Below are positions 2,770-62,716 of a stretch of 63,912 bases of DNA, piece by piece. The stretch lies in IMG/VR virus record IMGVR_UViG_3300037484_000502, positions 1 to 63,912 of that record, one strand, 5' to 3'. A program made the translations under genes and the position numbers. Position 1 is the stretch's first letter, and every line of letters begins with the position of its first letter. This DNA is from a virus (lineage: Duplodnaviria; Caudoviricetes). The notes beneath the pieces were generated by a model. The model searched no databases. It was not told where the DNA came from and saw only the letters and a program-made list of their open reading frames with translations.

Positions 2770-2777
2770 GGCGTAAG
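2770..2777 (+). promoter_or_regulatory. GGCGTAAG motif 6 nt before GTG (putative -10 element, leaderless start)
   Basis: Recurs at 3189, 25553, 26756 and (minus) 62709-62716 with 6-7 nt spacing. Confidence 0.55.
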
Positions 2778-2783
2778 AGAGCC

Positions 2784-3449
2784 GTGACGGCCAACATCCA
2801 GAAGACCCCCGGTCTGGAAACTAGCGAGGGGCAACGTGCGTGTATACTCGCGTTGGAATCGATTGGATGGGAACTACACACTGCTGAGATTGACTTAGCG
2901 CGCGGTGTTGCTCGCCTGGAGCTTCAGCATGAAGACCTGCTTGTCACGCTGGACTCAGACGCTCTTGGCCGAGCCACGGTGACTCGTGAACACATTACGC
3001 GCGAGACGGTCCTCGTGGGCCGTCGGGGAGATCAATGTCGAGTAGAGAGGCTTGGCACTGTCTTTCTGGGTCGCACCAGGCATGAGGGCCCTCGTGCCGC
3101 TCTAAGGTGGCTGGCCAACTACATTGAAGACAACAGCTCCTGTGAGAGGTTCTTTGTACGCCACTCACTGGCTCTTTTGACAAACAGTGGCGTAAGAGAG
3201 CACATGGGGTACCACTCTCGGCCAATCGCAAAGGGCGTTTACGGCGAAGTCTCCAAGATCCGAGAGGAACTTGAAGAGCTTGAGGACAGCGAGGAACTCG
3301 GGGTCAAGATCATGGCCATGTGCGAGCTGTCCGACCTCTACGGAGCCCTTCAGGAGTTCGCCAAGCGCAAATACGGTCTGTCGATGGATGACCTGAAGAA
3401 GATGTCAGACCGCACCAAGGAGGCATTCCGTGACGGGACTCGAAGCTGA
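2784..3449 (+). CDS. hypothetical N-terminal part in frame with a MazG-like/all-alpha NTP pyrophosphohydrolase-like domain (likely separate start at ATG 3204)
   Basis: C-terminal 81 aa MGYHSRPIAKGVYGEVSKIREELEELEDSE..CELSDLYGAL shows EExxE..ExxD acidic pattern; own GGCGTAAG motif 7 nt before ATG 3204. Confidence 0.55.
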   Translation: MTANIQKTPGLETSEGQRACILALESIGWELHTAEIDLARGVARLELQHEDLLVTLDSDALGRATVTREHITRETVLVGRRGDQCRVERLGTVFLGRTRHEGPRAALRWLANYIEDNSSCERFFVRHSLALLTNSGVREHMGYHSRPIAKGVYGEVSKIREELEELEDSEELGVKIMAMCELSDLYGALQEFAKRKYGLSMDDLKKMSDRTKEAFRDGTRS

Positions 3450-4056
3450 CGACTTCCGCAGGGTCGGGGCCATCAATTGGCCCCGATTGTCCAGAGCCCA
3501 CGTCTTCTTTCAGGGGAAGTTCTACCGGTACTTAGAGGTTCCGTGGGCGGTGCCGATCTCCGTGGTGGCCACAACCATCCCACCGGAAGCACGTCCTCTG
3601 TGCTTGGCTGACAGCGACTCTGTGCTGATTGGGTCCGCCGAACAGGGGATCATCGACCTGGTATGGAACAGCGGTTTCTGCCCCAGACAAGGCGAGAAGT
3701 ACTTTGCTGTATCTCCCTGCTTTCGAGGAGAGCACCCAGTAACCCCAGGCATTACCCAACTGACCTTCATGAAAGTTGAGCTGTTTTCCCTGAGCGGGCC
3801 GGGTGTGGTTGAAACGCTCGTGAACGACGCCGAAGAGTTCATGACTGGTGAGGGTGCTGTTCTTTCCCGGGTGGAGACCCCTGACGGGATGGACTTGTAC
3901 TGTGGTGGCCTGGAGGTGGGATCCTACGGTGCGCGGTCGGTGCGAGGGCTCCACTGGTCTTACGGTACGGGTCTCGCGGAACCCAGGTTCAACACATCAT
4001 TACGGGCAATGCGCCTCCAACAAGCGCACCAACTGCACCGGGACTACCACACATGA
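3430..4056 (+). CDS. class II aminoacyl-tRNA synthetase-like catalytic core (SerRS-like, no anticodon/tRNA-binding domain)
   Basis: GSAEQ, motif 2 SPCFRGE..TFMKVELF, LEVGSYG, motif 3 GTGLAEPRF; only 208 aa. Confidence 0.75.
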   Translation: MTGLEADDFRRVGAINWPRLSRAHVFFQGKFYRYLEVPWAVPISVVATTIPPEARPLCLADSDSVLIGSAEQGIIDLVWNSGFCPRQGEKYFAVSPCFRGEHPVTPGITQLTFMKVELFSLSGPGVVETLVNDAEEFMTGEGAVLSRVETPDGMDLYCGGLEVGSYGARSVRGLHWSYGTGLAEPRFNTSLRAMRLQQAHQLHRDYHT

Positions 4057-4358
4057 CAGGGCCTCTCGAAAATCTGGTCGATTTGAAGTACAAGATGCTC
4101 TCTGCGGCTTCTCTGGTGAGAACCATTGAGGATTCTCTTCAAAGGGCTCGTACAGAGCTGCACAATGCAGAGCGTGCCTACGAAACCAGCGTATCTCGCA
4201 GTGCGGAGCCTGAGGACAAGAACCTCACTACAGAAGATCTCCGTGAGAGGATTGCCAACTACGCACGGGCGCACGAAACGGGAGAAACGGACTTGTGGTG
4301 GAGGCTGTTCCGTAGGTCACTTGCAGTACTTGCCCAGCGTGCCGAGGGGAAGACCTAA
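4053..4358 (+). CDS. hypothetical coiled-coil protein
   Basis: ATGA overlap; heptad-like helix. Confidence 0.65.
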   Translation: MTGPLENLVDLKYKMLSAASLVRTIEDSLQRARTELHNAERAYETSVSRSAEPEDKNLTTEDLRERIANYARAHETGETDLWWRLFRRSLAVLAQRAEGKT

Positions 4359-4885
4359 TGGGCATCCGAGTTCACAAGGCCATTGGCTATGGAGTGAGGA
4401 AGTTCCGACCAACACTGGAGTTCAACCAGCGTCGAGAAGACTTCTGCGACATGAGCCGTGGTGACTTCAACAAGTGGGTCGCTGCAAATCGCCAGGCCAT
4501 TGAGTCCCTTGCCGGTGGTGATCCCAAGCGGCACTTCGACCTAGACGTTCTTCTCGCGTGCGAGAAATCAAAGTCCTGGGCATACCAAAAGGGCGCGAAC
4601 AACACCAACTACGTCTTCTTGGAAGAGGAGTTCGGGTACAAGGATGCTCTCCTCATTCGGCCCTTGACCTCACACCCTGACTGGTATCGGTTTGACGATT
4701 CCATTGACTACCTTGAAGAGCACACTAAGGACGGCCCACGCAATCGATGGAAGTTCCTCAATCAAGGGCTCTATCCCTATCTCAGGGACGGAGCCCCGAC
4801 GAACGTTGCGGCTGTCTGTTTGTTTTTAGGCGTTCCTGAGGTGTTCCCTCAGTTGCGGGAGGCCTTGTACGTCTGGTGGAGTTGA
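4358..4885 (+). CDS. hypothetical protein
   Basis: TAATG overlap; 175 aa. Confidence 0.7.
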   Translation: MGIRVHKAIGYGVRKFRPTLEFNQRREDFCDMSRGDFNKWVAANRQAIESLAGGDPKRHFDLDVLLACEKSKSWAYQKGANNTNYVFLEEEFGYKDALLIRPLTSHPDWYRFDDSIDYLEEHTKDGPRNRWKFLNQGLYPYLRDGAPTNVAAVCLFLGVPEVFPQLREALYVWWS

Positions 4886-5208
4886 AGAGGCGCTACAAGC
4901 GGTCCAGCGACATATGCCTTGGATGCAGCGAGGTTATCCCGCCAGTCGCAGTCGGCGCATTCACAGTCGAAGGCATCCTGCCAATAGCAGCAATCAAGGC
5001 CATTACAGGACTCGTCCTCTTCCCAGGCCGCATACAAGTCGTTCCGACACAAGTACGTCGTTATCTGCTCGCGCTCTGAGATGCGAGATTTGCGCTCCTG
5101 CCAGGTCTGATGGGCCTCGCTGCCCTTCAGTCCATTTGCCTTCTCAGGCTTGCAAAGAAGACAGCCCGCCCTACGATTTTTCGCCCGTCCGCGTTTGTGG
5201 TGACCCAT
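4849..5208 (-). CDS. basic Cys-rich putative Zn-binding protein (MGHHKRGRAKNRRAGCLLCKP)
   Basis: AAGGAG SD before ATG 5208; CxxC motifs. Confidence 0.65.
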   Translation of the reverse strand: MGHHKRGRAKNRRAGCLLCKPEKANGLKGSEAHQTWQERKSRISEREQITTYLCRNDLYAAWEEDESCNGLDCCYWQDAFDCECADCDWRDNLAASKAYVAGPLVAPLQLHQTYKASRN

Positions 5209-5342: not shown

Positions 5343-5978
5343 TTACTCTTCCTCTTCGTCTTCGAGGGATAGCACCCACTCGTCGTAGATCTCTTCGAGC
5401 TTGTTCTCTAGCCGTTCCCGGAGTTTCGGCGTGACGAGCTTTTCGTCCTCGTCACTCAGTTCCAGCCCACTGGCTCCGTACATGCCAGTCGTGAGCTGCT
5501 TTGAGCCCTCGGAGACCTCTAGGTCAATGGCTGGGCGGGGACCGCTGTCAGGCTCGAATGTGAGCTTGACCGTCAGTTCCTTCGTCTTGTCTTTCACCTT
5601 GATGGACTTGGTCTTGGACTCCGCAGCGGCCTTAGCCAACTTGATGAGGTCTGATTGAAGGGAGCTAAGGCGAGGCTCTAGGCTGGATCGCTGTCTGGAT
5701 CTGGCGAATTCCTGATCTGCGATGTTCTCTGACAGCTCCTGATAGTAGGTACGCATGTCCAGAAGTTGTCGGAGGTGGCCTTCGTACTCCTTTCGAGCAG
5801 CACTATAATCCTCTGGTGGGTTCAGCTGAAAGTTACGGCCATGCGGAGCTGCTTCGCCCACTGCCTCTACGGCCTTAAGCAACGCACGGTAAGCCTCCGT
5901 GGCTTGCTTCTGCAAAGTGCGTGTAGTATCCCCATTCATGTTTACAATGGGCATCGTTGGCTTGGTCATTGGAATCAC
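5343..5978 (-). CDS. hypothetical protein, two-domain
   Basis: Overlaps stop of upstream gene; internal LQSDLIKLA resembles a degenerate tag. Confidence 0.7.
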   Translation of the reverse strand: MIPMTKPTMPIVNMNGDTTRTLQKQATEAYRALLKAVEAVGEAAPHGRNFQLNPPEDYSAARKEYEGHLRQLLDMRTYYQELSENIADQEFARSRQRSSLEPRLSSLQSDLIKLAKAAAESKTKSIKVKDKTKELTVKLTFEPDSGPRPAIDLEVSEGSKQLTTGMYGASGLELSDEDEKLVTPKLRERLENKLEEIYDEWVLSLEDEEEE

Positions 5979-6790
5979 TCTTCTCTTTGAGCCAGTAGTG
6001 GAAGCAGGTAGGGGCGCAGCTCGGGGTTCTGATATGCGAGTCGGATCGTGGCCGAGCGGAGATTGCCAGCCTTCTTACCCTTACCCTTACCCATAATCTT
6101 GTGCCAGGCGTCAGTGACGAACTCACTGACAGTCCTCTTCCCGTCGGGGTGCTTCTTGACCCATTCCTTGTGGGCGCTCTCGGACTCAGCCTCGATCTTG
6201 TCCCAATCCTCTGGGGTGTATCCCTTGGGCCATTTGGTCTTGTCATCGAACTTGACCCGGTAGAGGGTGGCTCCCGTCAGGTCTGCATCCGTCAGGTCCG
6301 CACCGCTGAGATCCGCGTGGGACAGGTCAACCTTTTGCAGATTGGCGTCCACCAGATTTGCACCTGACAGGTCGGCCTTGGCCAACTGCGTCTCTTTCAG
6401 ATTGGAGTGGCTCAGGTCTGCCTTGGAGAGTTTGGCACCATTCAGGAACGACTGGCTGATGAAGGCACCCTTCAGGTCGGCACCAGAAAGGTCTTCGTCG
6501 TTCAGTGTCCGGCCGGTTACGCCGCCCTCCGCCATGAGTTCTTCCTTGATGGCTTCCGTGCGCTTCTTGCTCTTACCGGGGGCCTTGTCCTCAGTCTTTT
6601 TCCCAGACTCCTCGGTCTTCTTGACCGAGTGATTGGACTTGTCTGCGTCAGGGTGTTCCTTGAGATACTCTCGAAGGGCATCCTGGGTTGCAAACTCCTT
6701 GGCTGTCTTTGCCAGGATGGGTAGAAGGAATGCACGCAGCTCGGGTCGGGAGTGTGCGAGGCGGATAGTCTGACTTCGAAGATTGATCAT
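5975..6790 (-). CDS. pentapeptide-repeat protein with N- and C-terminal LRS..IRLA..PELR..LLPLL tags
   Basis: A(D/N)LSx repeats (ADLSGANLVDANLQKVDLSHADLSGADLTDADLTGA); tag at both ends. Confidence 0.85.
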   Translation of the reverse strand: MINLRSQTIRLAHSRPELRAFLLPILAKTAKEFATQDALREYLKEHPDADKSNHSVKKTEESGKKTEDKAPGKSKKRTEAIKEELMAEGGVTGRTLNDEDLSGADLKGAFISQSFLNGAKLSKADLSHSNLKETQLAKADLSGANLVDANLQKVDLSHADLSGADLTDADLTGATLYRVKFDDKTKWPKGYTPEDWDKIEAESESAHKEWVKKHPDGKRTVSEFVTDAWHKIMGKGKGKKAGNLRSATIRLAYQNPELRPYLLPLLAQREE

Positions 6791-6799
6791 GGTAGAATC

Positions 6800-7735
6800 C
6801 TAGGCAGCCTTAGGCTGTTTAATCGTCTCTGGGTCCGGCTCTTCGCCACGAAGGATAGCCTGCATGTCTTCGTCGGAAATGCCCTTTGCCATCACCTCAC
6901 CTACAGCCACTGTGAGGTACTGGACGAGCGTCTCTTGGTACTCCTCGTCACTGACCTCGGTGTCTGAAGCCATGACGAGATGCTTGAGCACTTCGGTGAT
7001 CGGGTGCATCGCGTGCAGCGCGGTTTCACCAGCTTCAAAGTGAAGGAAGCCGTGGTCTACAACGTGGGAGATGGCCTTCATCCCAACGTGCATCGCGAAG
7101 CTCTTCCCAACACCCGCCACCGCCATGAGAGGACCCCCTCCGGAGGCTGCCAGTGCCGCACCCGCAGCGTACACCGCAACCGAGTACACGGCCGCTCGGT
7201 CTTCCTTGTTCCACTTCTCCACGGGCTTCTTGAAGAGCTTCTTGACAGCGGTCCCCGCGTGCTTGATCTCTTTCAGCTCGCTCTTGGCCTGCTCCCAAAT
7301 GTGTTTCGCTAACTTCTCGGGGGACTTCTTGATGGCGTTGGCAACATTGGTAGTTGCCCTCTTGCGAGCCTCAGGATCCGACACAAACTCTTGCATCTTC
7401 GCGGGGGCCGCCTGAAGGGCCTTCACCATGTCGGCCTTGGCTCCCTTGACCTTCGAGAGAAAACTCTTGAACTTAGCCGCAATCCCTGGTGAGGGCTTGT
7501 CCTCCCCCTTGGGCTTGTCGTGGGAGGTGTCTTCCTCCTTCCCTTTGCCCTCACTCTTCGAAACGGCAACCGTGTGCTTCGAAGCGTCTGCGTCCGGGTG
7601 CTCGTCCAGGTACTTCTTCCGGGCGTCCTCAGTCGGGAACTCCATGGCCGTCTTCATGAGCAAGGGCAGAAGATGCGGTCGTAGCTCGGGGTTCTGGTGG
7701 GCGAGTCGGATGACTTTGGATCGAAGATTTGACAT
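6800..7735 (-). CDS. tagged hypothetical protein (putative virion internal protein)
   Basis: N-terminal MSNLRSKVIRLAHQNPELRPHLLPLLMKTA plus EFPTEDARKKYLDEHPDAD module shared with neighbour. Confidence 0.8.
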   Translation of the reverse strand: MSNLRSKVIRLAHQNPELRPHLLPLLMKTAMEFPTEDARKKYLDEHPDADASKHTVAVSKSEGKGKEEDTSHDKPKGEDKPSPGIAAKFKSFLSKVKGAKADMVKALQAAPAKMQEFVSDPEARKRATTNVANAIKKSPEKLAKHIWEQAKSELKEIKHAGTAVKKLFKKPVEKWNKEDRAAVYSVAVYAAGAALAASGGGPLMAVAGVGKSFAMHVGMKAISHVVDHGFLHFEAGETALHAMHPITEVLKHLVMASDTEVSDEEYQETLVQYLTVAVGEVMAKGISDEDMQAILRGEEPDPETIKQPKAA

Positions 7736-7747
7736 GGTGTTGGACTC

Positions 7748-8599: not shown

Positions 8600-8604
8600 T
8601 CAGA

Positions 8605-9015: not shown

Positions 9016-9038
9016 ACCTTCGAACAGAAATAAAGGGG

Positions 9039-25566: not shown

Positions 25567-26463
25567 ATGTTTCTGAAAGGTCGCCTTGGAATCGATGGGG
25601 CGCAGATTGCGCAGGCGGATCGCCATGGGGTACTTTGGTTGGGTCGTGGGATCCTGGATGTTCGGGATGGTGTCGCACGATTCGTGACTGTGGGAACAGA
25701 ATGGCTCCCGGCGGGGGATTACGCAATTCCATTTCAACAATTGTCGTGCGTGGTTTTGGGGCCCGGTACCTCTATTACGCACGATGTACTTAGGATCTTT
25801 GCGGCCCACGGAACTGGTTTGGTAATGACTGGTGAGGATGGGGTGAAGTTCTATGCCAGTATGCCATTTGGCCCGGATGACTCCAGGCGGGCTAGAAGAC
25901 AGGTCGCGATATGGTCAGATGAATCAAAGAGATCACTCCTGGTGAGACGAATGTATGCCTGGCGTATGGGAGAAATCTTCCCAGATGCAAGTCTCGATGT
26001 TCTTCGTGGGATGGAGGGTGCACGAGTGAAGGCATCCTATGAGCATCTAGCACACGCTCACGGAATTACTTGGAAGGGGAGGCAATACGACCGCGGTGAC
26101 CCCGAATCCGCAGATCACCCCAACCAAGCGATAAATCACGCATCCACAGCAGTCAACGCATGTGCAATGGTCGCAACGGCTGTGACTGGCACCATCCCTC
26201 AACTGGGATTCATCCATGAGACGAGTGGTAATGCACTCTGTCTCGATGTTGCGGATATGTTCCGGGAATCTGCGACAGTACCGACGGCATTTGCAGCAGT
26301 GAAAGAGCACCAGAAGGCACCTGATAAGTCACTTGAACGCACAGTGCGTAAGTTCGTGGGAAAGCTGGCACGGAGAACACAGCTTGTTGCTCAGATGATT
26401 GACAAGATCAAGGAGATGTTTGATGGGTGCGACAACGATTCTAGTGACGAGAAACGTACGTGA
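25567..26463 (+). CDS. cas1: type I-E CRISPR integrase Cas1
   Basis: LGPGTSITHD, LRGMEGARVK, LGFIH, LDVADMFR; catalytic E/H/D present. Confidence 0.97.
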   Translation: MFLKGRLGIDGAQIAQADRHGVLWLGRGILDVRDGVARFVTVGTEWLPAGDYAIPFQQLSCVVLGPGTSITHDVLRIFAAHGTGLVMTGEDGVKFYASMPFGPDDSRRARRQVAIWSDESKRSLLVRRMYAWRMGEIFPDASLDVLRGMEGARVKASYEHLAHAHGITWKGRQYDRGDPESADHPNQAINHASTAVNACAMVATAVTGTIPQLGFIHETSGNALCLDVADMFRESATVPTAFAAVKEHQKAPDKSLERTVRKFVGKLARRTQLVAQMIDKIKEMFDGCDNDSSDEKRT

Positions 26464-26770
26464 CCGCTTTCGTGGATTCCTTGCATCATGTACCTGTGAG
26501 GTGGCACCTGGAGTGTACCTCGGTTTCGATATGAACTCTAGGGTACGAGAACGTGTGTGGGATGTTCTTGAATCGTGGTGGCAACTTGGGGACGACGCCA
26601 GCGTTGTTATGGCATGGCCCAAAGCTGATGCACCTGGAGGTATGCGTGTCAAAACTCTCGGTGTCCCACCCGTTGAACTTGTCGAGATTGATGATTTGAT
26701 ACTAACACGTCGGGATGCGGATGCAGAACAACGAACTGTTCTGACGAAGCGGCTGGGCGTAAGAACCTGA
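26423..26770 (+). CDS. cas2: type I-E Cas2
   Basis: RFRGFLAS..EVAPGVY..RVRERVW; follows cas1; start approximate. Confidence 0.93.
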   Translation: MGATTILVTRNVRDRFRGFLASCTCEVAPGVYLGFDMNSRVRERVWDVLESWWQLGDDASVVMAWPKADAPGGMRVKTLGVPPVELVEIDDLILTRRDADAEQRTVLTKRLGVRT

Positions 26771-29451
26771 TGCGAGGAACACCAACGACATTTTGGGGGA
26801 AGCTGACGAGAAACGCGGCTGGAGAAGTCACCGATTGGCATCCCCTGGTTGCCCATTGCGCTGATGTGGCTGCTGTTGTGGAGGCCCTGCTCACAAGAAC
26901 GATCCTTGGTATCAGATTTGCCCATATTTTGGGTATGGGTACCCTCGACAGATGCACCATAGCAAAGTTGTGTGTCCTTGCTGCACTCCACGATATCGGA
27001 AAATTTAATCATGGATTTCAAGCAAAATCCCTACCCCTGGGTAGCAAGGTAGAACGTAGGGGACACACCACTGAAGGTTTGTCACTTTTCAATCCACCGG
27101 GACCAGATCCTGAGATTCTTGCTCTGCAAGAGCGCCTCCCTCTTGCGGATTTCAAAATGTGGGGGGAAGAAGAGAGCATCGGGCTTCTTCTTGCTTCAAT
27201 CAGTCATCACGGTAGGCCGGGGGATGTGGATGCAGCTCGATTTGAACGGGAGATTTGGCGCCCTCGGGGTGGGAAGGATCCAGGTGAGGGCCTTGGCCTT
27301 CTTGTCTCCCACATCAAGGGATGGTTTCCGGAGGCATTCTCCGGTGTTGGGACACTCCCATCCGCACCGGCTTTTCAACACGCCTATGCGGGGCTCGTCA
27401 TGCTTGCAGACTGGGTTGGATCGGATAGTTCGGAGGGGGCATTCCGATACCAAACAGATCTGGATCCTTCTGACCGCATGGTGTTCTCCAGGGCGCAAGC
27501 TGCTAAGTCCCTAGTTGCACTAGGTCTCGATGTAGAAACCTACCGAACCTCCCTTGGTATTGAGACCCCCAAATTCGGGAACATTTGGACACCATATCAA
27601 CCCAACAGTGCCCAACAGGCTGTGATTGATCTCCGCTTGGCACTCAAGTCGGGCATGCTGTCGTTGCTTGAGTCAGAAACAGGATCCGGCAAAACAGAAG
27701 CGGCGATCATCCACTTCCTGAGACTTTTTCATCTGGGTCTTGTGGACGGCTTGTACTTTGCGTTACCTACCAGAACAGCTGCAACACAGATTCACAAGCG
27801 AGTAGTGGATGCTGTTGCGAAAGCTTTCCCGGATAGTGTGTGTCGGCCACCAGTCGTACTTGCAGTACCTGGGTATCTTCGCATAGATGAAATCGAGGGC
27901 AGGAAGCTTCTACCTGGGTTTGAGGTTCTATGGAACGATGACCCACTTAGGGCTCAACGGTATAGGGGGTGGGCTGCCGAACTCCCGAAGCGTTTTTTAG
28001 CCGGGGCTATTGCTGTCGGGACCATTGACCAGGCATTACTTTCGGCACTGCAAGTAGACCATGCCCATCTTCGATCTACAGCACTGTTGAGGCATCTTCT
28101 CGTAGTCGATGAAGTCCATGCCTCGGATGCATACGGAACGAGACTCCTCACGGAAGTTTTGGGCACACACCTATCGGCCGGTGGTCATGCATTGCTGCTC
28201 TCTGCAACACTTGGGACAGAGGCTCGAACCAGACTTTTCACACCTCAGGATGCACCACCCCAAAAACCGCCCCCTCTCTCGGAGGCCAAACTTGCTCCGT
28301 ACCCAGCACTCACTACTCGTATTGAGGGTGAGACTGAGGTGGTTGTACGCACAATCAAAGTCTCCTCAACTTCAGTGCCCAAGTATGTGATGCCAGACCT
28401 GCGCCCTTGGATCCGCGATCCCTCAAAGATCATTGCCGAAGCACTTGAAGCAGCTAGAAGAGGAGCACGCATCATCATCCTGCGAAACACTGTGGGTGAC
28501 TGTGTTGCGACACAAAAGGCTCTCGAAACAGCGGTAGCTGCTAGTGGGGAGGGTCATTTGCTCTTTAGGTGCAAGGGCGTTTCGGCCCCCCACCATTCCC
28601 GCTTCGCCCGTGAGGATAGGAACGATCTTGACGTTGCGATTGGGGAGTCCTTCGGTAGAAATGGGAAACACCACTTTGGGATGATTGCGGTTACGACTCA
28701 GACCATACAACAAAGTCTCGATTTGGATGCCGACCTACTCATTACTGATTTGTGCCCCATGGACATACTGCTCCAGCGTATTGGGCGTCTTCATAGGCAC
28801 CCAATACGAGTAAGGCCCGAGGGATATGGGAAGCCACGAGTGGTTGTGCTTGTCCCTACGGACCGTAATCTAGGCAAACTGATTGGTCCCAAAGGTGAGG
28901 CGCGTGGAAGACATGGGTTTGGCCGTGTGTATGAAGATCTACGCATCCTGGAAGCAACGTGGAGACTGCTGGAAACTGAGAGTGTCCTGGAGATTCCGAC
29001 GATGAACCGGCACCTCGTTGAACACACCACCCATCCTGAGGCACTTGGTGCAATCGTGCGTGAACTTGGGGGCGTGTGGCCTGTGCACCAGATAAGGGTT
29101 GACGGGATCCGACTAGCTAGCAGCGGTGTGGCAATGCTCAATCTAGTCAGACGTGATCAACCCTTTGGTGAGCTTGCAACATGTTTCCCGAGCAAAGGGG
29201 AGGACAGTCGTCGCATCCCCACTCGCTTGGGGGAAGGGGATCGCAGGTTGGTGTTCCAGGACTCCTTTGAGAGCCCGTTTGGGCATTGGATTCGAGAACT
29301 GAGCGTGCAAGGGTGGCTCGCTGATGGGGCGGCTTCCGATGGGGCTGCGATAGTTATGGGGGTAAGTGGGGAATCGACTCTAATCTCGTCTGGGGATGCG
29401 ATTTTTGTCTACGATCGGCTGGGACTGCGTAAAGGAGACAACGCACTGTGA
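26770..29451 (+). CDS. cas3: Cas3 HD nuclease-helicase
   Basis: LVAHCADVAAV, LHDIGK, SHHG, LADWVGS; TGSGKTE, DEVH, SAT, QRIGRLHRH. Confidence 0.97.
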   Translation: MRGTPTTFWGKLTRNAAGEVTDWHPLVAHCADVAAVVEALLTRTILGIRFAHILGMGTLDRCTIAKLCVLAALHDIGKFNHGFQAKSLPLGSKVERRGHTTEGLSLFNPPGPDPEILALQERLPLADFKMWGEEESIGLLLASISHHGRPGDVDAARFEREIWRPRGGKDPGEGLGLLVSHIKGWFPEAFSGVGTLPSAPAFQHAYAGLVMLADWVGSDSSEGAFRYQTDLDPSDRMVFSRAQAAKSLVALGLDVETYRTSLGIETPKFGNIWTPYQPNSAQQAVIDLRLALKSGMLSLLESETGSGKTEAAIIHFLRLFHLGLVDGLYFALPTRTAATQIHKRVVDAVAKAFPDSVCRPPVVLAVPGYLRIDEIEGRKLLPGFEVLWNDDPLRAQRYRGWAAELPKRFLAGAIAVGTIDQALLSALQVDHAHLRSTALLRHLLVVDEVHASDAYGTRLLTEVLGTHLSAGGHALLLSATLGTEARTRLFTPQDAPPQKPPPLSEAKLAPYPALTTRIEGETEVVVRTIKVSSTSVPKYVMPDLRPWIRDPSKIIAEALEAARRGARIIILRNTVGDCVATQKALETAVAASGEGHLLFRCKGVSAPHHSRFAREDRNDLDVAIGESFGRNGKHHFGMIAVTTQTIQQSLDLDADLLITDLCPMDILLQRIGRLHRHPIRVRPEGYGKPRVVVLVPTDRNLGKLIGPKGEARGRHGFGRVYEDLRILEATWRLLETESVLEIPTMNRHLVEHTTHPEALGAIVRELGGVWPVHQIRVDGIRLASSGVAMLNLVRRDQPFGELATCFPSKGEDSRRIPTRLGEGDRRLVFQDSFESPFGHWIRELSVQGWLADGAASDGAAIVMGVSGESTLISSGDAIFVYDRLGLRKGDNAL

Positions 29452-30992
29452 CCAACCATCAAAACGATCTACTGACAGAATCCATCTTCGGAGTCGAAGG
29501 TCGGGATGGACGATCCAGAGTATCTCTTGCGGGCCTTCTAGCGCGCCTTGGACAAGGTGTTCCGACCGAGATGACGGCACTTATGTCGCATCAACAGCAC
29601 CCGTGGCACGCATTTGTAGTACAACTTGCGGCACTGGTTCTTGCTCGAAATGGGGACACTAGACTCGACCGATCGGAAATCGAGTGGTGTGACGCCTTGC
29701 GAAATCTGGCCGGTGGGGAAGAGGCATTCTCTCTTGTCGTCCCTGACCTGTCAAAGCCTGGATTCATGCAGTCCCCGGTTCCTGAGGGCTCCCTATCGGA
29801 TTGGAAGAAAGATCAGGTACACCACACGCCGGGTGAACTCGATGTAATCCCTACTGCGAGAAACCACGATGTGAAGATCGGCAGATTTAGTAGTCCTGCA
29901 CTTGAGCACTGGATCTACGCGCTTGTGTCCCTACAGACGAACGAAATGTTCATGGGCGCTAAGAATTGGGGTATTGCACGCATGAATGGTGGGACTTCAT
30001 CGCGCCCTTGTATCAGTGCTGCCAGAAGTAGCAACTTTGAAGTGCGGTTCACCCGTGACGTGACAACGTGGCTGCAAGAACGCGAGAGACTCGTTCGTGA
30101 ACGTGGTTACGATTCCGCTGGGATTGGACTCGTGTGGGCTGCCCCCTGGGATGGCGAACAGAGTCTGGCACCCTCGGACTTAGATCCTTTCTTCATAGAG
30201 GTATGTCGTAGAGTCCGATTTGTGTCGAATGGGTGTGGTGGATTACAAGCACACTATCGCCCTACTAACGTCTTACGAATCTCACCAATGGGGATGCCAA
30301 AGGCATACGGTGCAACGGGTGACATTTGGACTCCCCTTAAAACCAAAGATGGCGGTTCCCTGACTGTTTCCTCGAATGGTTTCGACTATAGAACTCTTTC
30401 AGACCTACTATTCAGTTCTGACTGGCGCCAAAGCCCCTCACAGATAGTACGAAAGGAAGACGGCCCTACCCCTGTACTGATTGCATGTGCGTTAGCGCGT
30501 AAGCAAGGTGGGACTGAGGGACTTCATGAGCGTGTCATCCCTATCCCAGAGAAAGCGAAGAGATGTTTTGCTTCCCCTGGGGATCGTGTGCAGATTGGCA
30601 AGGTGGCGAAGGACCGGGTCGCCCGCGTATTGAAGATGCGGGACGGTGTCCTCAAGCACGCACTCCTCGCTATAGTCCAAGGGGGCCCTACCAAGATCAA
30701 CTTCAAGGACAAGAGCGCCAAAGTCCATCTAGATGCCTTCGAGCAACGTATTGATGGCCTGTTCTTCGAGCACCTCTTTGATGCGATAGGTCTTGAACCA
30801 GAAGAGTCTGAATCCCTTTGGGATGCCCTTCTCCTCAAAGAGGCGAAAGACGTGAAGAAGCGTGCGGAGGGTACACTCACGATTCCTATCTCACGTCGGT
30901 ACAAGGCACTTGCCGCAGGGGACCGCACCTTTCTAGATTCGTCCAAGAAGCATAAGTTTTACCGGCCTGTTCCCGATACTGGAGCCAAATGA
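29448..30992 (+). CDS. cas8e: Cascade large subunit Cas8e/Cse1
   Basis: HQQHPWHAFVVQLA, NWGIARMNGG, LDPFFIEVCRRVR; position after cas3. Confidence 0.9.
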   Translation: MTNHQNDLLTESIFGVEGRDGRSRVSLAGLLARLGQGVPTEMTALMSHQQHPWHAFVVQLAALVLARNGDTRLDRSEIEWCDALRNLAGGEEAFSLVVPDLSKPGFMQSPVPEGSLSDWKKDQVHHTPGELDVIPTARNHDVKIGRFSSPALEHWIYALVSLQTNEMFMGAKNWGIARMNGGTSSRPCISAARSSNFEVRFTRDVTTWLQERERLVRERGYDSAGIGLVWAAPWDGEQSLAPSDLDPFFIEVCRRVRFVSNGCGGLQAHYRPTNVLRISPMGMPKAYGATGDIWTPLKTKDGGSLTVSSNGFDYRTLSDLLFSSDWRQSPSQIVRKEDGPTPVLIACALARKQGGTEGLHERVIPIPEKAKRCFASPGDRVQIGKVAKDRVARVLKMRDGVLKHALLAIVQGGPTKINFKDKSAKVHLDAFEQRIDGLFFEHLFDAIGLEPEESESLWDALLLKEAKDVKKRAEGTLTIPISRRYKALAAGDRTFLDSSKKHKFYRPVPDTGAK

Positions 30993-31543
30993 TGACTGAT
31001 TCGACAACTGAGTTGGTGGAACAACCACAAACTGAGCCCCCTTATCGTGAGCGTCTCTCATCGGCGGTCAACACAATCTCGATTGGGATGAGTCGTGGAT
31101 ACTCTCGGGGGGACGTTTCAGCACTTCGCCGTCTCAACTCAAAAAGTTGGGGGGCCCCCATCTTCTGGCACATTGTTACCCAAATACTTGAGCCTAATGG
31201 GCTAGTGTCCCCTGTGGGACACCGTGCACAAGAGGATGAGAGGCGCTGGGCTGTCCTGCTTGCCTCTATGGCCCTACTCCAGGGGCAGCACACACATCAA
31301 GTCCCCTTCGGTAAGGGGCTTGCTGTTGCTCAGGTGAGCCCACTTCGCGTCGAGCGCCTGTTACGTGCACATGGCAGTGCACTCCTCGATCTTGTCAAAT
31401 CCATGGCCCACCAACTATCCTCGAAAGGCGTAAAGTTCGACCAGGTGGGGTTGGTTGAGTTGGTGCTCTCAGACGGGGCCCCCTATGAAGAGAGCATCCG
31501 CCGATCAATTGCCCGAAGCTTCTACCGCATCGAAACACGCTAA
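30989..31543 (+). CDS. cas11: Cascade small subunit Cse2/Cas11
   Basis: GDVSALRRL, SPLRVERLL, RRSIARSFY. Confidence 0.9.
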   Translation: MMTDSTTELVEQPQTEPPYRERLSSAVNTISIGMSRGYSRGDVSALRRLNSKSWGAPIFWHIVTQILEPNGLVSPVGHRAQEDERRWAVLLASMALLQGQHTHQVPFGKGLAVAQVSPLRVERLLRAHGSALLDLVKSMAHQLSSKGVKFDQVGLVELVLSDGAPYEESIRRSIARSFYRIETR

Positions 31544-31574
31544 CAACCGAATCACAATGTACATGGATAACTCA

Positions 31575-32810
31575 ATGACCCTGACCCGTTTCCTTCAGAT
31601 CAACTGTCTCACATCGTACCCGGCGTCCCTCCTCAACAGGGATGACTCAGGATTTGCAAAGCGAATCCCGTTTGGTGGGACCACCAGAACTCGTTGCTCT
31701 TCACAGAGCCTCAAATACCACTGGCGGTCGCATGATGGGGAGTATGCGATCTCTGGTATCGAAGGCGTCGAACTCTCAGTCCGCTCACGGGTGACTTTCG
31801 AGAGTGAGGTGTTTGCGAAGCTTGTCGCTGAGGGGGTACCTGAGGTGCGGGCTGACGTGCTGACGAAGGCGCTTCTGGCACTGGTACTCGGAAAGAGTGA
31901 CAAGGCCGCACAGGAAGAGACGGACGAAGAGGACAAGCCCAAGAAGAGCAAGAAGAGCAAGAAGAGTGAACCTGAGTCCCGTGAGTCGATCCAAACGAAT
32001 CAGGTGACTGTTTTCGGCAGGCCCGAGCTGAGTTATCTGTTTGGGGAAGCCCTGAAGATTGCAACCACCCCCACCTTTGAGGCTCTTTTCAGTAGCCCCG
32101 AGAAGGTAAAGGAGGCCGTCAGTGGTGCTGTTGAGGCGCACTTCAAGTCGAAAGACCATAAGGCCAACCTCAAGGCTCTCAAGCTGGGTGCTGGTATCGA
32201 CGCAACGCTCTTTGGTCGAATGGTAACTGGGGACATCCTTGCGCGATGTGATGCGGCAATTCATGTCTCCCATGCCTTCACAGTCCACGAGGAAGCAACC
32301 GAGAGCGATTACTGGTCGGCAGTGGACACCTTGTCGGAAGCAGCGGGAAGTGCACACATCAATTCCAGTGAACTCACGACCGGTCTCTTCCACATCTACA
32401 TTTGTGTAGACATCCCCCTACTCGTTTCGAATCTGGGTGGTGACTTGGCGCTTGCAGGTGAAGTCCTTGCACGTCTGGTGCACACTGTCTCAACAGTGTC
32501 TATCGGTGCAAAGCTGGGATCAACAGCGCCACATACCTACGCACAAATGGTGCTCGTGGAAGCTGGTAACTCTCAACCCTGCACAATGGCAAATGCTTTC
32601 GCAAATGCTGTGAGCACCAACGGATCCCTGCTTGCAAATGCCTACGATGCACTCGCACGATTCGTAACTGACCTCGATGCGATGTACGGTTCGAAGAACA
32701 AGCGTGTGATCGCAATGATGGGGCCCCGAGAGAAGCTCGCAGGTGTGTTCCCGGCACCTGTAACTCTTGCGGAGGTTGCGGACTTTGCTCGCGCTGTGGT
32801 CTCCAAATGA
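31575..32810 (+). CDS. cas7: Cas7/Cse4 backbone subunit
   Basis: LLNRDDSGFAKRIPFGG..R.SSQSLK, LFGRM, ESDY.SAVD; start may be 31557 or 31563. Confidence 0.95.
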   Translation: MTLTRFLQINCLTSYPASLLNRDDSGFAKRIPFGGTTRTRCSSQSLKYHWRSHDGEYAISGIEGVELSVRSRVTFESEVFAKLVAEGVPEVRADVLTKALLALVLGKSDKAAQEETDEEDKPKKSKKSKKSEPESRESIQTNQVTVFGRPELSYLFGEALKIATTPTFEALFSSPEKVKEAVSGAVEAHFKSKDHKANLKALKLGAGIDATLFGRMVTGDILARCDAAIHVSHAFTVHEEATESDYWSAVDTLSEAAGSAHINSSELTTGLFHIYICVDIPLLVSNLGGDLALAGEVLARLVHTVSTVSIGAKLGSTAPHTYAQMVLVEAGNSQPCTMANAFANAVSTNGSLLANAYDALARFVTDLDAMYGSKNKRVIAMMGPREKLAGVFPAPVTLAEVADFARAVVSK

Positions 32811-33565
32811 TCGATGTCCTCGTGCTGCGATTTGAGGCCCCCCTTATGTCGTTTGGTGACGTTGCCATCGACAGTAAGAGGCCCACACGCATGTTTCCTA
32901 CCCAGTCCATGATCACAGGTCTGTGTGCCAATGCACTAGGACATGGGCACCATGAGCCGGATCGAACCGGTGCCTTGCAAGCAAGAATCCGTTTTGCTGC
33001 ACGGCGTGACCGTGAGGGGGAAATGCTGCGTGACTACCACACGGTAGATTTGGGTCAAAAGGACTCCCGTGGGGTGTATTGGATGGCAGACACAGGTTGG
33101 ACAACACACGGCGCCCCGGAGTGTCGTGGCGGGGACTCCAAAAACAGAATGGGGACACACCAACGTGAGCGGTTCTATCTGGCAGATGCCATCTACACTG
33201 TCGTGCTGGCTCTGTCCCCATCTGAATCTGAGGAGTCACCATCTCTTGAGTCCTTAGAAGCTGCATTACAGGAACCAGCTCGCCCTCTCTTCCTCGGACG
33301 GAAGACATGCATCCCCGCGTCCCCAATCCTTGTGGGTCGTACAAGCGCAAGCACCCTACTCTCAGCACTCTCTACAGCCCCACTCGCAAATAGGTCCACA
33401 ATCCGAGATGGCCGTGTCCTTGCGGAGTGGCCTGACGATGGGACTGAAACGGACATCTTGAAATCGCGTCGATCAGCAATCACTGATGAACGAGATTGGG
33501 CAAATCAGATCCATGTTGGCCGACGATTTGTACGTGAAGGAATGCTGACACTGGAGATGAAGTGA
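32807..33565 (+). CDS. cas5: Cas5e
   Basis: LRFEAPLMSFG, PTQSMITGL.ANALG, DYHTV, R.YLADA, LFLGRK.CIP. Confidence 0.95.
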   Translation: MIDVLVLRFEAPLMSFGDVAIDSKRPTRMFPTQSMITGLCANALGHGHHEPDRTGALQARIRFAARRDREGEMLRDYHTVDLGQKDSRGVYWMADTGWTTHGAPECRGGDSKNRMGTHQRERFYLADAIYTVVLALSPSESEESPSLESLEAALQEPARPLFLGRKTCIPASPILVGRTSASTLLSALSTAPLANRSTIRDGRVLAEWPDDGTETDILKSRRSAITDERDWANQIHVGRRFVREGMLTLEMK

Positions 33566-34239
33566 CCCCCCAATTGCACCTTGTCCGACTCGAACTGAAT
33601 CCCTCACGGGTTTTTGATTTTGGGGCGCACCTTCGTCTGCCTCAGGGTACAGACTTGGGCTATCTGGTGCACTGCCAATTAGGCACCCTCTTTGGAGAGT
33701 GCAGCCTCACACCATTTGTTATAGAGGACACCAAGAAATCCCGTAACATCATTGTGCAAGGATACAGCACGCGTAGTGGTGAAGAACTTCGAGAGTATGC
33801 TCAGACTTTCTCGGACCCCAGAGCCTTTGAGGCGTGTGATTGGACTACATTTGCAAGCAAACCCATGCCTATGGCTTCGGTGCTCAAGCATGGAATGCAA
33901 CTAGGTTTTGCCACACGAGTTCACCCAGTTAAGCGTACTAGATCGGGGGAAAGAACACTCTCAGAACAAGAATTGCCTGCGTGGGTTACAAGAGAACTCT
34001 CCCGTAATGGGGCAGCAACTCTCAACGTAGTCAAAGTGTCACCTATCCGACTTATCCCTATGACTCGGCGCACGCAGGGTGTTGATCGTCAGATTGTGTG
34101 TTGGGGTGGTCCTGAGGTTCACCTGGAGGGGGCCTTCACTGTCAGGGACCCTGAATCTTTCCAAATGTTGTTGTTACGAGGTGTGGGACGCCAACATGCG
34201 TTTGGATTTGGAATGCTTCGGTTGCGTTCTGCGCGATAG
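33562..34239 (+). CDS. cas6e: Cas6e/Cse3 crRNA endonuclease
   Basis: N-terminal His (GYLVHCQL) and C-terminal GVGRQHAFGFGML glycine loop. Confidence 0.93.
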   Translation: MTPQLHLVRLELNPSRVFDFGAHLRLPQGTDLGYLVHCQLGTLFGECSLTPFVIEDTKKSRNIIVQGYSTRSGEELREYAQTFSDPRAFEACDWTTFASKPMPMASVLKHGMQLGFATRVHPVKRTRSGERTLSEQELPAWVTRELSRNGAATLNVVKVSPIRLIPMTRRTQGVDRQIVCWGGPEVHLEGAFTVRDPESFQMLLLRGVGRQHAFGFGMLRLRSAR

Positions 34240-57728: not shown

Positions 57729-57735
57729 ATGGTCT

Positions 57736-58062
57736 TCACCCAAATCGAAGAGTAGTGCCGTAGTGGGCATCCCATCCGGATGCTCCGAATGGAGACACCA
57801 TGCTACCCTCATCTACCAATTGGAAGGGCTGAAAACACCCATCGTTCTCGCGATACAGAGGTTCACATTTGATGACCCACTCATCGAACTTACTGCCAAT
57901 CACGAGGAAGTGTTTCCCCGTCCAAAGTCCAACGTTACCGTTACGTCCACGACCCACGTACCATCGGTTCACAAGGAGCTGTCCTTCAGGTATGAGAGGT
58001 ACGTCAGTCAAAACGGAATGACCCCCTTGCAGGACCCTCTTGGAGAGCATTCGACAGTCCAC
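57736..58062 (-). CDS. hypothetical protein (start probably downstream of 58062)
   Basis: WYVGRGRNGNVGLWTG..CFQPF. Confidence 0.55.
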   Translation of the reverse strand: MDCRMLSKRVLQGGHSVLTDVPLIPEGQLLVNRWYVGRGRNGNVGLWTGKHFLVIGSKFDEWVIKCEPLYRENDGCFQPFQLVDEGSMVSPFGASGWDAHYGTTLRFG

Positions 58063-60343: not shown

Positions 60344-60374
60344 AGTAACGGACCGGACCCCACCCCTTACACGA
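60344..60374 (-). promoter_or_regulatory. ECF-sigma-like promoter TCGTGTAA-16nt-CGTTA
   Basis: Near-identical to 62751-62779; same motif at 2099-2129. Confidence 0.65.
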
Positions 60375-60394
60375 TTCATTGGGGGAGATTCAAC

Positions 60395-62521
60395 CTAGGC
60401 CAAGAAATCCTTCAAGATTCGGTCCTGGTCGAAGGGGGTGATGCCTTCGTAAAGGGAGAATATGGTCTCCGCCTCTTCCTTCAGAACCGGCTTGCCCCGA
60501 GCCTCGATGTGCATCTCGAAAAGGTCGTAGAGCGCCGGCTTCTGGAGCGTAGAAATCGCCTTCGCCATCTGGGAGATTCCCACTCTGTTCTGACCGACAT
60601 TGTTGATTGCAGCTGCGCTATTCAGGGAAAGGTCGGCCCAGATCGCGACACGCTCCTGCAAGTCAAACACGATCGGCACAGAGACCTTCGTCTCCGCTGT
60701 CACGTCAATCTTGTCCTGGACAGTCCGCGCATCAAATACCTCACCGGACTGGACCTTGGAACGAGCCATCCATCCTGCGAAGCATTCTGGCAGATCCTTG
60801 AACGGCTGCTGAGTGAAGCTGTTCACAACCATCACTACGTACCGCCCGTGCTTGCGGGCCTTTGAGATGTCAATGTCGATGAACTCAGACGCCCCGTTCG
60901 GAGCGCTAGTGATGTCACCGCTGTGATGAGCCCCCATCTCACGGAGATTGTAGTAGGTAACCGCGGTCTTGAACTTGAAGTCATCGTCAAGAAATGCTGC
61001 GGACAAATCCAGATCCGTCCGGCTCTCCCCGTCCTTCCACCAGATGAAGAAGCGCAACGTTGAGCAATCCGGCAGCGGAATCCGCGACCCTCGCGCAACC
61101 GTCCGAAGGCTCTTGCTTGCGGAGCGAACCGAGAACGGTACCAGCTGCGTCTTCAATCGCGAATCGAGATACGTGGGCCCAAGAGCCGGGAGCTTCGCGA
61201 AGCGCCGAACAAGAGCTGCACGAATGATCCCCGCCGCTTGATCGGACACCTCCCCCAACTTCGGGAGTGAACCATCAACGACCTGAACCTTCGCCACATT
61301 TCCCTTCGGAAAGAACGCGCGGAACCCGAGATCGTTGTTCCGGTTCTTGAAGTGAGCGAACGCCTGGAGGAGAACCGGCGTAGAGACCTGATCAACGATT
61401 GCTTCGTACTGCTTCAGAACCCAGAGTGGGTGCGAAGATTTCACACCCCCCTCCAAACGGAGGAGATGATCGAGACGACGAGAGAAATCCCCCGGTCGCG
61501 TCGAAAGGAGATCCGCTGCTGCAAGGACGTTGTCAAACATGAGAGCACTCTCGACTTTGCTGTTGAAAGTGTCGAAGTCCTCATCGTTCCGAATGACCTT
61601 AAAAGCACTATAGGCCTTCGGAAATCTATCAGCGTAGTCCCCGGCACGAAGGCCGTGACCGAAGCGCTTGAACACCTCAGGACGACGCAGCATGTCCTCG
61701 GTTGCCGAAGACGCCCTCTCAATCACTGAGAGGAAGAACCGACGCTCACTCCGCTTGAACTTGCGGAACTTCGTGGGCTTCGCCAGAGACACGTCCCCGC
61801 CAGACATCACTACTGCCACTCGAAGGGCATCCGTTGCAGTCTTCAGGTACGGGAGCAGGTACTCAGGTGTCCCGGAGGCCGAAAGCTCCCCAAACAGGTG
61901 GGCGAGGTTTTCCTTCTGTGGGATCGCCTCCGGAAGGAGGGTCGGAATCTCGGATCGGCGATTCTTCACGAACCACGTTACGATGTCCTTGTCCGCCTGG
62001 GACAGGGCCGCGTTGGCTCCAACGAGCGTGCCGAAAATCGAATCGAAGTCCTTCGCGGACCCGAGCCGTAGGACACGCAACTTGATCTCTCCATCGGGAA
62101 GAGCTTCACGGTGGTCCTTCTGGTAGTCCGGCAAGTACTGGACCGGGACGCTCGTCACATCGTGGATGAAGCTCCCCCAATAGTGGAGGATGGCGTTCAA
62201 GTACAACTCGACCGCCGACGCCTCCATGACCTGCTTCGGGAAGTTCGGGTACATCGGCTTGTGGACCTGATGTGCCCCGGTCATCTCCTTCAAAATCGGA
62301 AAAATCCCATTGTAGAGGGCAACCATGTTCTCAAGACCGCTCTTAGCAACCGCCAGGAGAAGCTCCAGATCCATCGTGAACCCGATAGTGTTGAGGTTCC
62401 TGTTGAACGTCGCGACATACGTGCGCTCTATGGAAATAGTTGGGTGGCCATCCGGGACCCCCTCCGGAAGGATGACCCTTGCCCGCTTCTGGAGGTAAAT
62501 AGATGTGGGGGTCAGAGTCAT
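60395..62521 (-). CDS. large helical protein with C-terminal TerD-like domain
   Basis: PMYPNFPKQVME, RPGDFSRRLDHLLR; C-terminal LRFFIWW..DLDLSA..HSGDITSAPNGASEFIDID. Confidence 0.85.
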   Translation of the reverse strand: MTLTPTSIYLQKRARVILPEGVPDGHPTISIERTYVATFNRNLNTIGFTMDLELLLAVAKSGLENMVALYNGIFPILKEMTGAHQVHKPMYPNFPKQVMEASAVELYLNAILHYWGSFIHDVTSVPVQYLPDYQKDHREALPDGEIKLRVLRLGSAKDFDSIFGTLVGANAALSQADKDIVTWFVKNRRSEIPTLLPEAIPQKENLAHLFGELSASGTPEYLLPYLKTATDALRVAVVMSGGDVSLAKPTKFRKFKRSERRFFLSVIERASSATEDMLRRPEVFKRFGHGLRAGDYADRFPKAYSAFKVIRNDEDFDTFNSKVESALMFDNVLAAADLLSTRPGDFSRRLDHLLRLEGGVKSSHPLWVLKQYEAIVDQVSTPVLLQAFAHFKNRNNDLGFRAFFPKGNVAKVQVVDGSLPKLGEVSDQAAGIIRAALVRRFAKLPALGPTYLDSRLKTQLVPFSVRSASKSLRTVARGSRIPLPDCSTLRFFIWWKDGESRTDLDLSAAFLDDDFKFKTAVTYYNLREMGAHHSGDITSAPNGASEFIDIDISKARKHGRYVVMVVNSFTQQPFKDLPECFAGWMARSKVQSGEVFDARTVQDKIDVTAETKVSVPIVFDLQERVAIWADLSLNSAAAINNVGQNRVGISQMAKAISTLQKPALYDLFEMHIEARGKPVLKEEAETIFSLYEGITPFDQDRILKDFLA

Positions 62522-62548
62522 TGGAATAGCTCGGGGTGGTAAAAAGAA

Positions 62549-62615
62549 GCGCAGGAAAGCAGCAGAGGTAGGTTTTGGTTGAAAAAAGAGAAGGAACCCC
62601 TGCTATGGCCTGCGC
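62549..62615 (-). ncRNA. structured RNA motif copy B (67 nt), unknown class
   Basis: GCGCAGG-CCAU-AGCAG-G-GGUUCCUUCU-loop-CUACC-U-CUGCU-GCUUU-CCUGCGC; stems covary with copy A. Confidence 0.75.
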
Positions 62616-62635
62616 GGAAATTCAGTCGAAAGAGG

Positions 62636-62702
62636 TGTTCAGGAAAGCGGTGGAGGTAGTTTTCCAGTAGTTTTAGAAGGAACCACCACCATGGCCTGAA
62701 CA
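62636..62702 (-). ncRNA. structured RNA motif copy A (67 nt), unknown class
   Basis: UGUUCAGG-CCAU-GGUGG-U-GGUUCCUUCU-loop-CUACC-U-CCACC-GCUUU-CCUGAACA; 5' end 6 nt after GGCGTAAA. Confidence 0.75.
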
Positions 62703-62708
62703 AGTACC

Positions 62709-62716
62709 TTTACGCC
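62709..62716 (-). promoter_or_regulatory. GGCGTAAA motif 6 nt before the structured RNA
   Basis: Same spacing as before the cas1, cas3 and 2784 start codons. Confidence 0.55.

Follow-up and report, generated by a model that had tools for sequence, protein, structure and literature searches.

We analysed the IMG/VR virus record IMGVR_UViG_3300037484_000502 over its whole length (63,912 bases, hereafter the window), which carries tail and baseplate genes, one sigma-70 family gene and a complete type I-E cas operon, and in which the short word GGCGTAAR recurs a few nucleotides (nt) before start codons. The cas operon (25567..34239, plus strand) consists of cas1, cas2, cas3, cse1, cse2, cas7, cas5 and cas6e, with profile matches to Cas1, Cas3 HD/helicase, CT1975-type Cas7, Cas5 and Cas6e. 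It is flanked by two arrays of clustered regularly interspaced short palindromic repeats (CRISPR), array 1 on the minus strand (~24040-25472, its first repeat ending at 25472) and array 2 on the plus strand (~34290-36037). The baseplate protein of the window is 71% identical to that of a 97.6-kb IMG/VR contig (G001) and 53% identical to that of a 485-kb uncultured phage (LR745208.1), while its sheath-like protein has 199 relatives among viral contigs. For the sigma gene, cas3 and a 708-amino-acid (aa) protein encoded at 60395-62521 (minus), no relatives were found in the viral contigs.

An initial annotation of this DNA had proposed GGCGTAAR, 6-7 nt before start codons that include those of cas1 and cas3, as a phage promoter giving leaderless mRNAs. 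Every position in it was checked and is correct, and three further copies can be added, at 31427 (plus, GGCGTAAA), 47120 (minus) and 51837 (minus). The window holds nine GGCGTAAR in all, where 100 dinucleotide shuffles give 1.70 on average and 6 at most, and the shorter GCGTAAR occurs 19 times where the shuffles predict 6.23. Four of the nine copies precede the ATG or GTG of a long frame by 6-7 nt, cas1 and cas3 included. Taking as start-adjacent a GCGTAA followed after 5-12 nt by an ATG or GTG that opens at least 60 codons, four of nine exceeds the control rate of 7.6% obtained from 63 other NNNTAA words (P=0.003).

These four copies all read GGCGTAAG and lie on the plus strand. The copy at 25553-25560 stands 6 nt before the cas1 start (ATG 25567), which agrees with the Pfam profile at an offset of ~5 residues. 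The copy at 26756-26763 stands 6 nt before the cas3 start (ATG 26770), itself supported by an HD-domain profile that begins at residue 9; this copy is embedded in the end of cas2 (stop codon 26768-26770), and there is no space for a Shine-Dalgarno (SD) sequence before cas3. The remaining two serve a single open frame (2784-3449). One, at 2770-2777, falls in the 145-nt gap after a plus-strand open reading frame (ORF) ending at 2638 and precedes GTG 2784 by 6 nt (221 codons); the other, at 3189-3196, lies inside the frame begun at 2784, 7 nt before ATG 3204. The frame thus has two motif-led starts, with products of 221 aa and 81 aa, and its phrog_6408 match is confined to the 81-aa part, which spans positions 2-83 of the 83-position profile. 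Possibly two products are made from the one frame.

A second set of copies lies at a greater distance, before genes with an SD sequence of their own. The word GCGTAAC at 13987-13993 (minus) precedes GTG 13959, the SD-led start of a 1021-aa gene, by 27 nt, and GGCGTAAC at 50620-50627 (minus) precedes ATG 50568, the SD-led start of a phrog_1672 gene, by ~50 nt. Similarly, GGCGTAAG at 51837-51844 (minus), located in the end of the upstream gene, precedes ATG 51802 and its GAGGA by 34 nt, and GGCGTAAG at 18001-18008 (plus), in a divergent intergenic region, is 42 nt upstream of ATG 18051, itself preceded by GAGGAG at 18038-18043. An ATG at 18013, 4 nt after this last copy, has a frame of only 25 codons; ATG 18051 is the real start. 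Elsewhere in the window, GCGTAAG at 56308-56314 (minus) lies 5 nt before GTG 56302 (151-codon frame), and GCGTAAG at 47450-47456 (minus) has a GGAG behind it and, at a distance of 8 nt, an ATG opening 69 codons. No start codon is near the GGCGTAAG copy at 47120-47127 (minus), which stays unexplained.

The cas operon holds six sense and no antisense GCGTAAR words in 8.8 kb, where the shuffle rate predicts 0.43 (P=6e-6) and the rate of the window itself 1.3 (P=0.002). In addition to the copies that head cas1 and cas3, GCGTAAG at 26346-26352 (plus) falls within cas1, towards its 3' end; the probable cas2 start, ATG 26423 with AAGGAG 7 nt before it, follows 70 nt downstream. The GCGTAAA at 29427-29433 (plus) runs directly into the AGGAGA of cse1 (GTG 29448) and is ambiguous, since its TAA-AGGAG may simply be an extended SD. 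Neither the operon-sense copy at 30497 nor GGCGTAAA at 31427-31434 (plus; inside cse2, ~122-140 nt before the likely cas7 starts at 31557-31575) has a clear target. Back to back with the cas1 copy, a variant, GGAGTAAG, at 25534-25541 (minus) faces the conserved leader of array 1; its placement in the initial annotation holds, and as a single variant copy it carries little weight as evidence. No GCGTAA-type word stands in front of array 2.

The CRISPR leaders have features of their own. The leader common to both arrays (25473-25530, minus; 34240-34290, plus) consists of CCATCTCTGAAAACTGAATC followed by a GCGACAA-NN-TGTCGC inverted repeat directly before the first repeat, and that of array 2, preceded by TAGAAT, begins immediately behind the stop codon of cas6e. 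A 21-nt core of the CRISPR repeat was matched in seven bacterial contigs of mixed phyla, only one of which has four repeats.

The last copy, GGCGTAAA at 62709-62716 (minus), heads a pyrimidine-rich folding leader of ~180 nt (62522..62703, minus; two long hairpins) before ATG 62521 of the 708-aa gene, which has no SD in front of it. The 194 nt downstream of the motif fold at -57.9 kcal/mol (z=-5.2 against shuffles). A structured RNA at this place, as previously annotated, is plausible, but its 5' end, 6 nt from which the annotation had set the motif, cannot be fixed from sequence. The 61-codon TTG frame within 62522-62703 is probably not a gene. The two halves of the segment are similar, and both contain GGTTCCTTCT together with a stretch, ACCTCC or ACCTCT, that resembles the anti-SD. 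An Rfam scan of the window gave no match at gathering score, and a Vault RNA hit to the leader (26 bits against a threshold of 34) was dismissed. A 32-nt element containing CGTGTAAG is present in two copies that are 91% identical (60346-60377 and 62751-62782, both minus), upstream of an HD-domain gene (ATG 60324, SD-led) and of the 62709 motif, respectively. A third CGTGTAA stands at 2100-2106 (plus), upstream of the SD-led ATG 2149; this word was rejected as an enriched one, with 4 occurrences in the window against 3.96 expected.

The start linkage seen in the window is confirmed in its relatives and extends to a phage lineage. Pooled counts refer to a five-record set of 406 kb (the window, G001, G002, G003 and G005; sites near record ends excluded), in which G001, G002 and G005 are fragments; a further relative, G007, is complete at 536 kb. 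GCGTAA tops the list of enriched 6-mers (15 against 0.5 expected) in the interval from -22 to -3 of 181 longest-ORF starts of the window and G001, ahead of the SD-like AAGGA, whose enrichment upstream of the same starts is weaker (13 against 4.0), and GCGTAA is also among the top upstream 6-mers of G005 alone. By count, G001 has 15 GGCGTAAR against 2 for a reversed control word and G005 has 23 GGCGTAAB, mostly GGGCGTAAC, against 4. Across the five records, 50 of 119 GCGTAA sites are start-adjacent, compared with 7.6% of the 1170 sites of the 63 control words (P=6e-25). The positional enrichment relative to starts that the initial annotation had suggested checking is thus borne out in the window and in its relatives, and the control-word and shuffle tests both exclude random placement.

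The spacing is sharp, with the start codon 7-9 nt after GCGTAA at 51 of 68 sites, and these 68 starts are ATG (47), GTG (14), TTG (4) and CTG (3). In a single-base scan, G1, T4, A5 and A6 proved necessary, most other single-base variants being start-adjacent at ~7%. With G at position 7, 30 of 59 sites are start-adjacent, with C 15 of 35 and with T 4 of 13, but with A only 1 of 12. Only 7-8 positions of the motif are informative, and its flanks are not conserved. Two candidate variants were rejected, CGTAGG with 5 of 59 sites linked to starts and GTGTAAG with none of 11. The word recurs in relatives with sheath proteins of only 55-75% identity, and a G003/G005 orthologue pair with 41% identity has it 8-9 nt upstream in both members. 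In LR745208.1, 25 of 89 GCGTAA sites are start-adjacent (P=8e-9). Five bacterial genomes that match the CRISPR repeat core show no excess of GGCGTAAS. The structural region of LR745208.1 (243839-287213) has a different top upstream word, CTAAGG or CCTAAG (4 against 0.1 expected), whose distance to starts varies between 2 and 12 nt and which may combine a TAA stop with a short SD-like GG.

We read GGCGTAA(G/C/T) as a -10-like promoter without a -35, used by a huge-phage lineage and giving many leaderless mRNAs, a reading to which we assign a probability of roughly 60% from sequence. The core G-C-G-T-A-A would be recognised as a short -10-like element, and RNA polymerase would initiate ~7-10 nt downstream of it. 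At ~40% of sites transcription would begin on the first base (A or G) of the start codon or 1-2 nt ahead of it, so that the mRNA would be leaderless, which would explain the absence of an SD, and of room for one, in start-adjacent genes. The remaining sites would give a transcript with an ordinary SD leader, a structured leader or a tRNA. Enrichment, position, strand, sequence specificity and conservation of the word in relatives are shown; that it acts in transcription, where exactly the transcript starts and that translation is leaderless are inferred. In the window, the element would head cas1 and cas3 as leaderless genes, and cas2, several non-cas genes and the structured leader at 62522-62703 likewise have it upstream, so that the acquired type I-E system would share its signal with phage genes. 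The earlier proposal that the cas genes are wired into the phage's own transcription programme is reasonable in this light, given the bias of six sense to no antisense copies and the same word before non-cas phage genes, here and in relatives that have no cas genes.

The serious competitor, if an unlikely one, is that the word is a translation-initiation signal on mRNA, either a non-SD ribosome site or the site of a ribosome-recruiting factor of phage or host, comparable to the start-associated sequence (SAS) of Cluster K mycobacteriophages. In its favour, the word occupies a ribosome-binding position, 5-12 nt before the starts of a mostly non-structural gene subset, both in the five records and in LR745208.1. 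It often lies 5-30 nt after a same-strand gene or overlaps the end of one, as does the cas3 copy inside cas2, and its strong ATG preference (47/68) resembles that of SAS (80/93 ATG; PMC3203893). An SD site has the same position before the start codon, and taken alone the start-adjacent class does not tell a promoter from a translation signal.

Base pairing argues otherwise. The word GCGUAAS lacks GGAG or GAGG and has no complementarity to the CCUCC anti-SD core (judged by textbook 16S rRNA), and canonical GGAG-type sites coexist with it in the same genomes as a separate, weaker enriched class of SD-like words, sometimes downstream of the motif. The most that could form is UAAG with the ...CCUUA 3' end of 16S rRNA.

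Further evidence separating the two comes from sites at which no start codon follows closely. Outside the start-adjacent class there are 69 GCGTAA sites, and 20-21 of them have an SD-led start 13-80 nt downstream, about three times the frequency of control words (9-10%; P=2e-6). This leadered class persists after removal of the sites at which the TAA ends a long frame (15/52, P=1.5e-4) and when the SD is required to lie at least 8 nt after the motif. Furthermore, three of the four tRNAs in G001, G002 and G003 have the motif upstream on the same strand, 8 nt before the 5' end of a G001 tRNA(CTA), 41 nt upstream of the G002 tRNA(CTA) and 22 nt upstream of a G003 tRNA-Gln; the chance of all three is 5e-7. 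The word also precedes the folded untranslated leader of the window. Orthologous genes may carry it at different distances, as with CGTAAG 28 nt upstream of window gene 9257-9619 and GCGTAAG 10 nt upstream of its G002 orthologue, a result that favours transcription. Back-to-back divergent motif pairs number five against 0.94 expected, with no convergent (face-to-face) pairs, and in two such pairs of G005 the start codons are only ~37-42 nt apart, which leaves little room for another promoter. The earlier preference for a promoter over a ribosome-binding site is thus supported by the leadered class, the tRNAs, the divergent pairs and the folded leader.

Suppressor-type tRNAs are a separate feature of these genomes, with two of anticodon CTA in G001 (L019:4093-4252), one in G002 (L114:15763-15835) and one of anticodon TTA in LR745208.1 (7629-7705). 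Stop-codon recoding was considered and rejected, as the standard code covers ~0.90 of each record and TAG readthrough adds at most 0.03 (measured with ORFs of at least 100 aa).

A number of results weigh against a promoter. When tRNAs are pooled with those of LR745208.1, the three motif-preceded genes among 40 compare with 0.23 expected (P=0.0017), and none of the 36 tRNAs in LR745208.1 has GCGTAA within 100 nt upstream, the nearest words being 133 and 144 nt away. The SD-led class is likewise not enriched in LR745208.1 (5/64, P=0.72), so that this genome is enriched only in the start-adjacent class, which speaks for a translation signal. Divergent pairs would be expected too if the word were a ribosome site, and the many start-adjacent sites 5-30 nt after a same-strand gene are equally typical of ribosome sites within operons. 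Raw counts of the word are not above those of the control word in LR745208.1, G002, G003, G004, G006, G007 and G008; the start-linked use in LR745208.1 without a raw excess indicates that raw counts can hide real start-linked use.

The sequence of the element also departs from that of a standard promoter. The standard -10 hexamer, TATAAT, has A at -11 and T at -7. In an alignment of our own that sets the TAA of the motif to -10 to -8 of this hexamer, the 6-7 nt spacing of the window copies is canonical for transcription starting at the A of ATG, and the same alignment gives -11 a G and -7 either G or C, unlike any standard -10 element. The motif matched no known sigma specificity. The statement in the initial annotation that no -35 is shared holds, with no informative column from -50 to -3 in 27 aligned sites or from -55 to -13 in 50, and no canonical sigma-70 -35 hexamer 16-18 bp upstream in either alignment.

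Which factor would read such an element is a related question. The sigma-70 family gene of the window (56874-57812, minus) is closest to RpoH models, at 211.9 bits against a curated cut-off of 323.1, and had been put forward as the partner of the motif. This pairing is not supported by comparison with LR745208.1, which uses the motif without a homologue of the gene; nor was a homologue found in G004, G006, G007 or G008. Also unfavourable to a promoter, the sigma-70 region-2 profile (PF04542) has no match in LR745208.1, G007 or the fragments G001, G002 and G005 (10 of 14 control genomes matched), and RNA polymerase beta (PF00562) has none in LR745208.1, G007 or G008, while 14 of 14 controls matched. 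The single-subunit RNA polymerase profile (PF00940) had no match in three relatives, and the control genomes were likewise without any match. Motif use in LR745208.1 without a recognisable sigma or polymerase gene weakens the link to the window sigma, which we retain as one improbable candidate only; a host sigma or an unrecognised phage factor are the candidates for the reader of the motif. The 708-aa protein matches the MXAN_6230/SCO0854 RING-domain family at 457 bits, short of the cut-off of 600, and together with the RpoH-like sigma it hints at a host of proteobacterial, myxobacterial or actinobacterial type.

More speculatively, the pattern may represent a promoter class of the lineage's own, GGCGTAA(G/C), with no -35 and without the two hallmark -10 bases, read by a putative phage factor not recognisable as a sigma-70 or a polymerase subunit, and running a largely leaderless regulon into which CRISPR-Cas, suppressor tRNAs and the structured RNA are plugged. 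We consider this fuller version doubtful as a whole.

A third explanation, which we regard as quite improbable, takes the word as a regulator site, either a stoperator-like asymmetric DNA site of a phage repressor along transcription units, for which the stoperators of phage L5 offer a comparison, or a site of endonuclease trimming of polycistronic RNA before starts and tRNAs. Consistent with this, the word is one-directional relative to genes, occupies short gaps between genes, close to starts, stops and tRNAs, and is scattered over many transcription units in several relatives. Its 7-8 informative positions are nonetheless short for a specific repressor, the L5 stoperators mentioned in PMC3203893 being 13 bp, and the sharp 7-9 nt spacing to starts is unexpected for one. 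Divergent genes with starts ~40 nt apart would still need promoters there. Neither a hairpin nor any other partner element turned up before the motif; an upstream hairpin or terminator cassette was rejected on the grounds that the 40 nt upstream of the motif fold no better than random windows.

Re-initiation after the TAA of the motif acting as a stop was likewise dismissed, as at 17 of 50 start-adjacent sites the frame of this TAA stays open for at least 60 codons upstream, near the one-third that a random upstream frame would give. Chance or composition (codon usage, TAA stops at gene ends, repeated DNA), to which those 17 sites and two G001 copies similar over ~28 nt upstream might point, is already refuted and has next to no probability left, since none of 100 shuffles reaches the observed count, control NNNTAA words are start-adjacent at 7.6% against 42%, the flanks are not conserved and the same word occurs in relatives with strongly diverged sheath proteins.

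Set against known systems, a promoter of this kind has several partial counterparts. The late promoters of phage T4 (TATAAATA, read by gp55) are recognised by the host polymerase with a phage factor, and their mRNAs have leaders with an SD. They resemble the element described here in being one short element near -10, without a -35, in many copies directly before genes; the sequences are unrelated, T4 has SD leaders, and no gp55-like factor was identified here. Leaderless transcription in a phage also has a reported parallel, the middle and late transcripts of the Thermus phage phiYS40 being, reportedly, leaderless in work attributed to Sevostyanova et al. 2007.

The closest mechanism is the -10 motif of Deinococcus-Thermus. 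According to PMC12340547, a TANNNT motif 6-7 bp before ORFs drives leaderless genes beside a separate GGAG class, with T1, A2 and T6 near-invariant. As there, the word stands at a short, fixed distance (6-9 bases) before the starts of SD-less genes; 50 of 119 sites place it so, and the window copies have their starts 6-7 nt after GGCGTAAG. Also alike are a second gene class with GGAG-type sites, the lack of an obligatory -35 and the occasional position of the motif inside the upstream frame. The consensus differs, G-C-G-T-A-A-[G/C/T] giving TANNNT in no register. In addition, GCGTAA is restricted to one lineage of phages, in which only some of the genes have it.

The closest descriptive precedent in phages is the Cluster K SAS, described in PMC3203893 as a 13-bp sequence, GGGATAGGAGCCC, with an AGGAG core, in which nearly all sites of the usual orientation lie immediately upstream of starts. 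Both are asymmetric repeats a few bases before starts, in one orientation, mostly at non-structural genes and with a preference for ATG, and both are conserved in related phages before unrelated genes. Unlike SAS, the GCGTAA word is 7-8 bp long and has no SD core. It is not solely start-adjacent either, since 69 of 119 sites lie elsewhere, 20-21 of these before SD-led genes, and it is also found before tRNAs and a folded leader. These differences count against a translation signal of the SAS type.

Some additional features of the window and its relatives are recorded here in their own right. Four neighbouring window genes (5975-6790, 6800-7735, 7748-8599 and 8605-9075) share a ~28-aa N-terminal module, encoded by an 85-nt repeat of 60-81% identity (5986-9015, minus). 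The module is also present in G001, G002, G003 and G005, at gene starts or inside genes, and the genes carrying it include those of pentapeptide-repeat, ART-PolyVal and DUF2958 proteins. A tandem 39-nt duplication (9927-10004, 95% identical) lies across the junction of genes 9654-9998 and 9995-10897. In G003, a CyVA-1 RNA (RF02965; L116:6391-6469) scores 55.8 bits, above gathering, with no GCGTAA in front.

A full-text literature search found no signal role for GCGTAAG or GGCGTAAG among the papers listed, mostly unrelated primer-type papers (supplements not covered), and among the papers listed on huge phages, promoters and leaderless transcripts nothing on a GCGTAA motif was found. If the word were a translation signal instead of a promoter, it would represent a second, SD-free kind of start-associated sequence. 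If, on the other hand, the promoter reading is true, the word would provide a sequence rule for transcription units and true starts in an uncultivated huge-phage clade, where gene callers that expect an SD would misplace starts, the in-frame pair at 2784 and 3204 being an example. It would also point to an unrecognised factor that reads promoters in genomes where neither a sigma nor a polymerase gene can be recognised. Finally, it would show how a phage-borne CRISPR-Cas system can be controlled by phage rather than host signals, which would make the timing of phage-encoded immunity directly testable.

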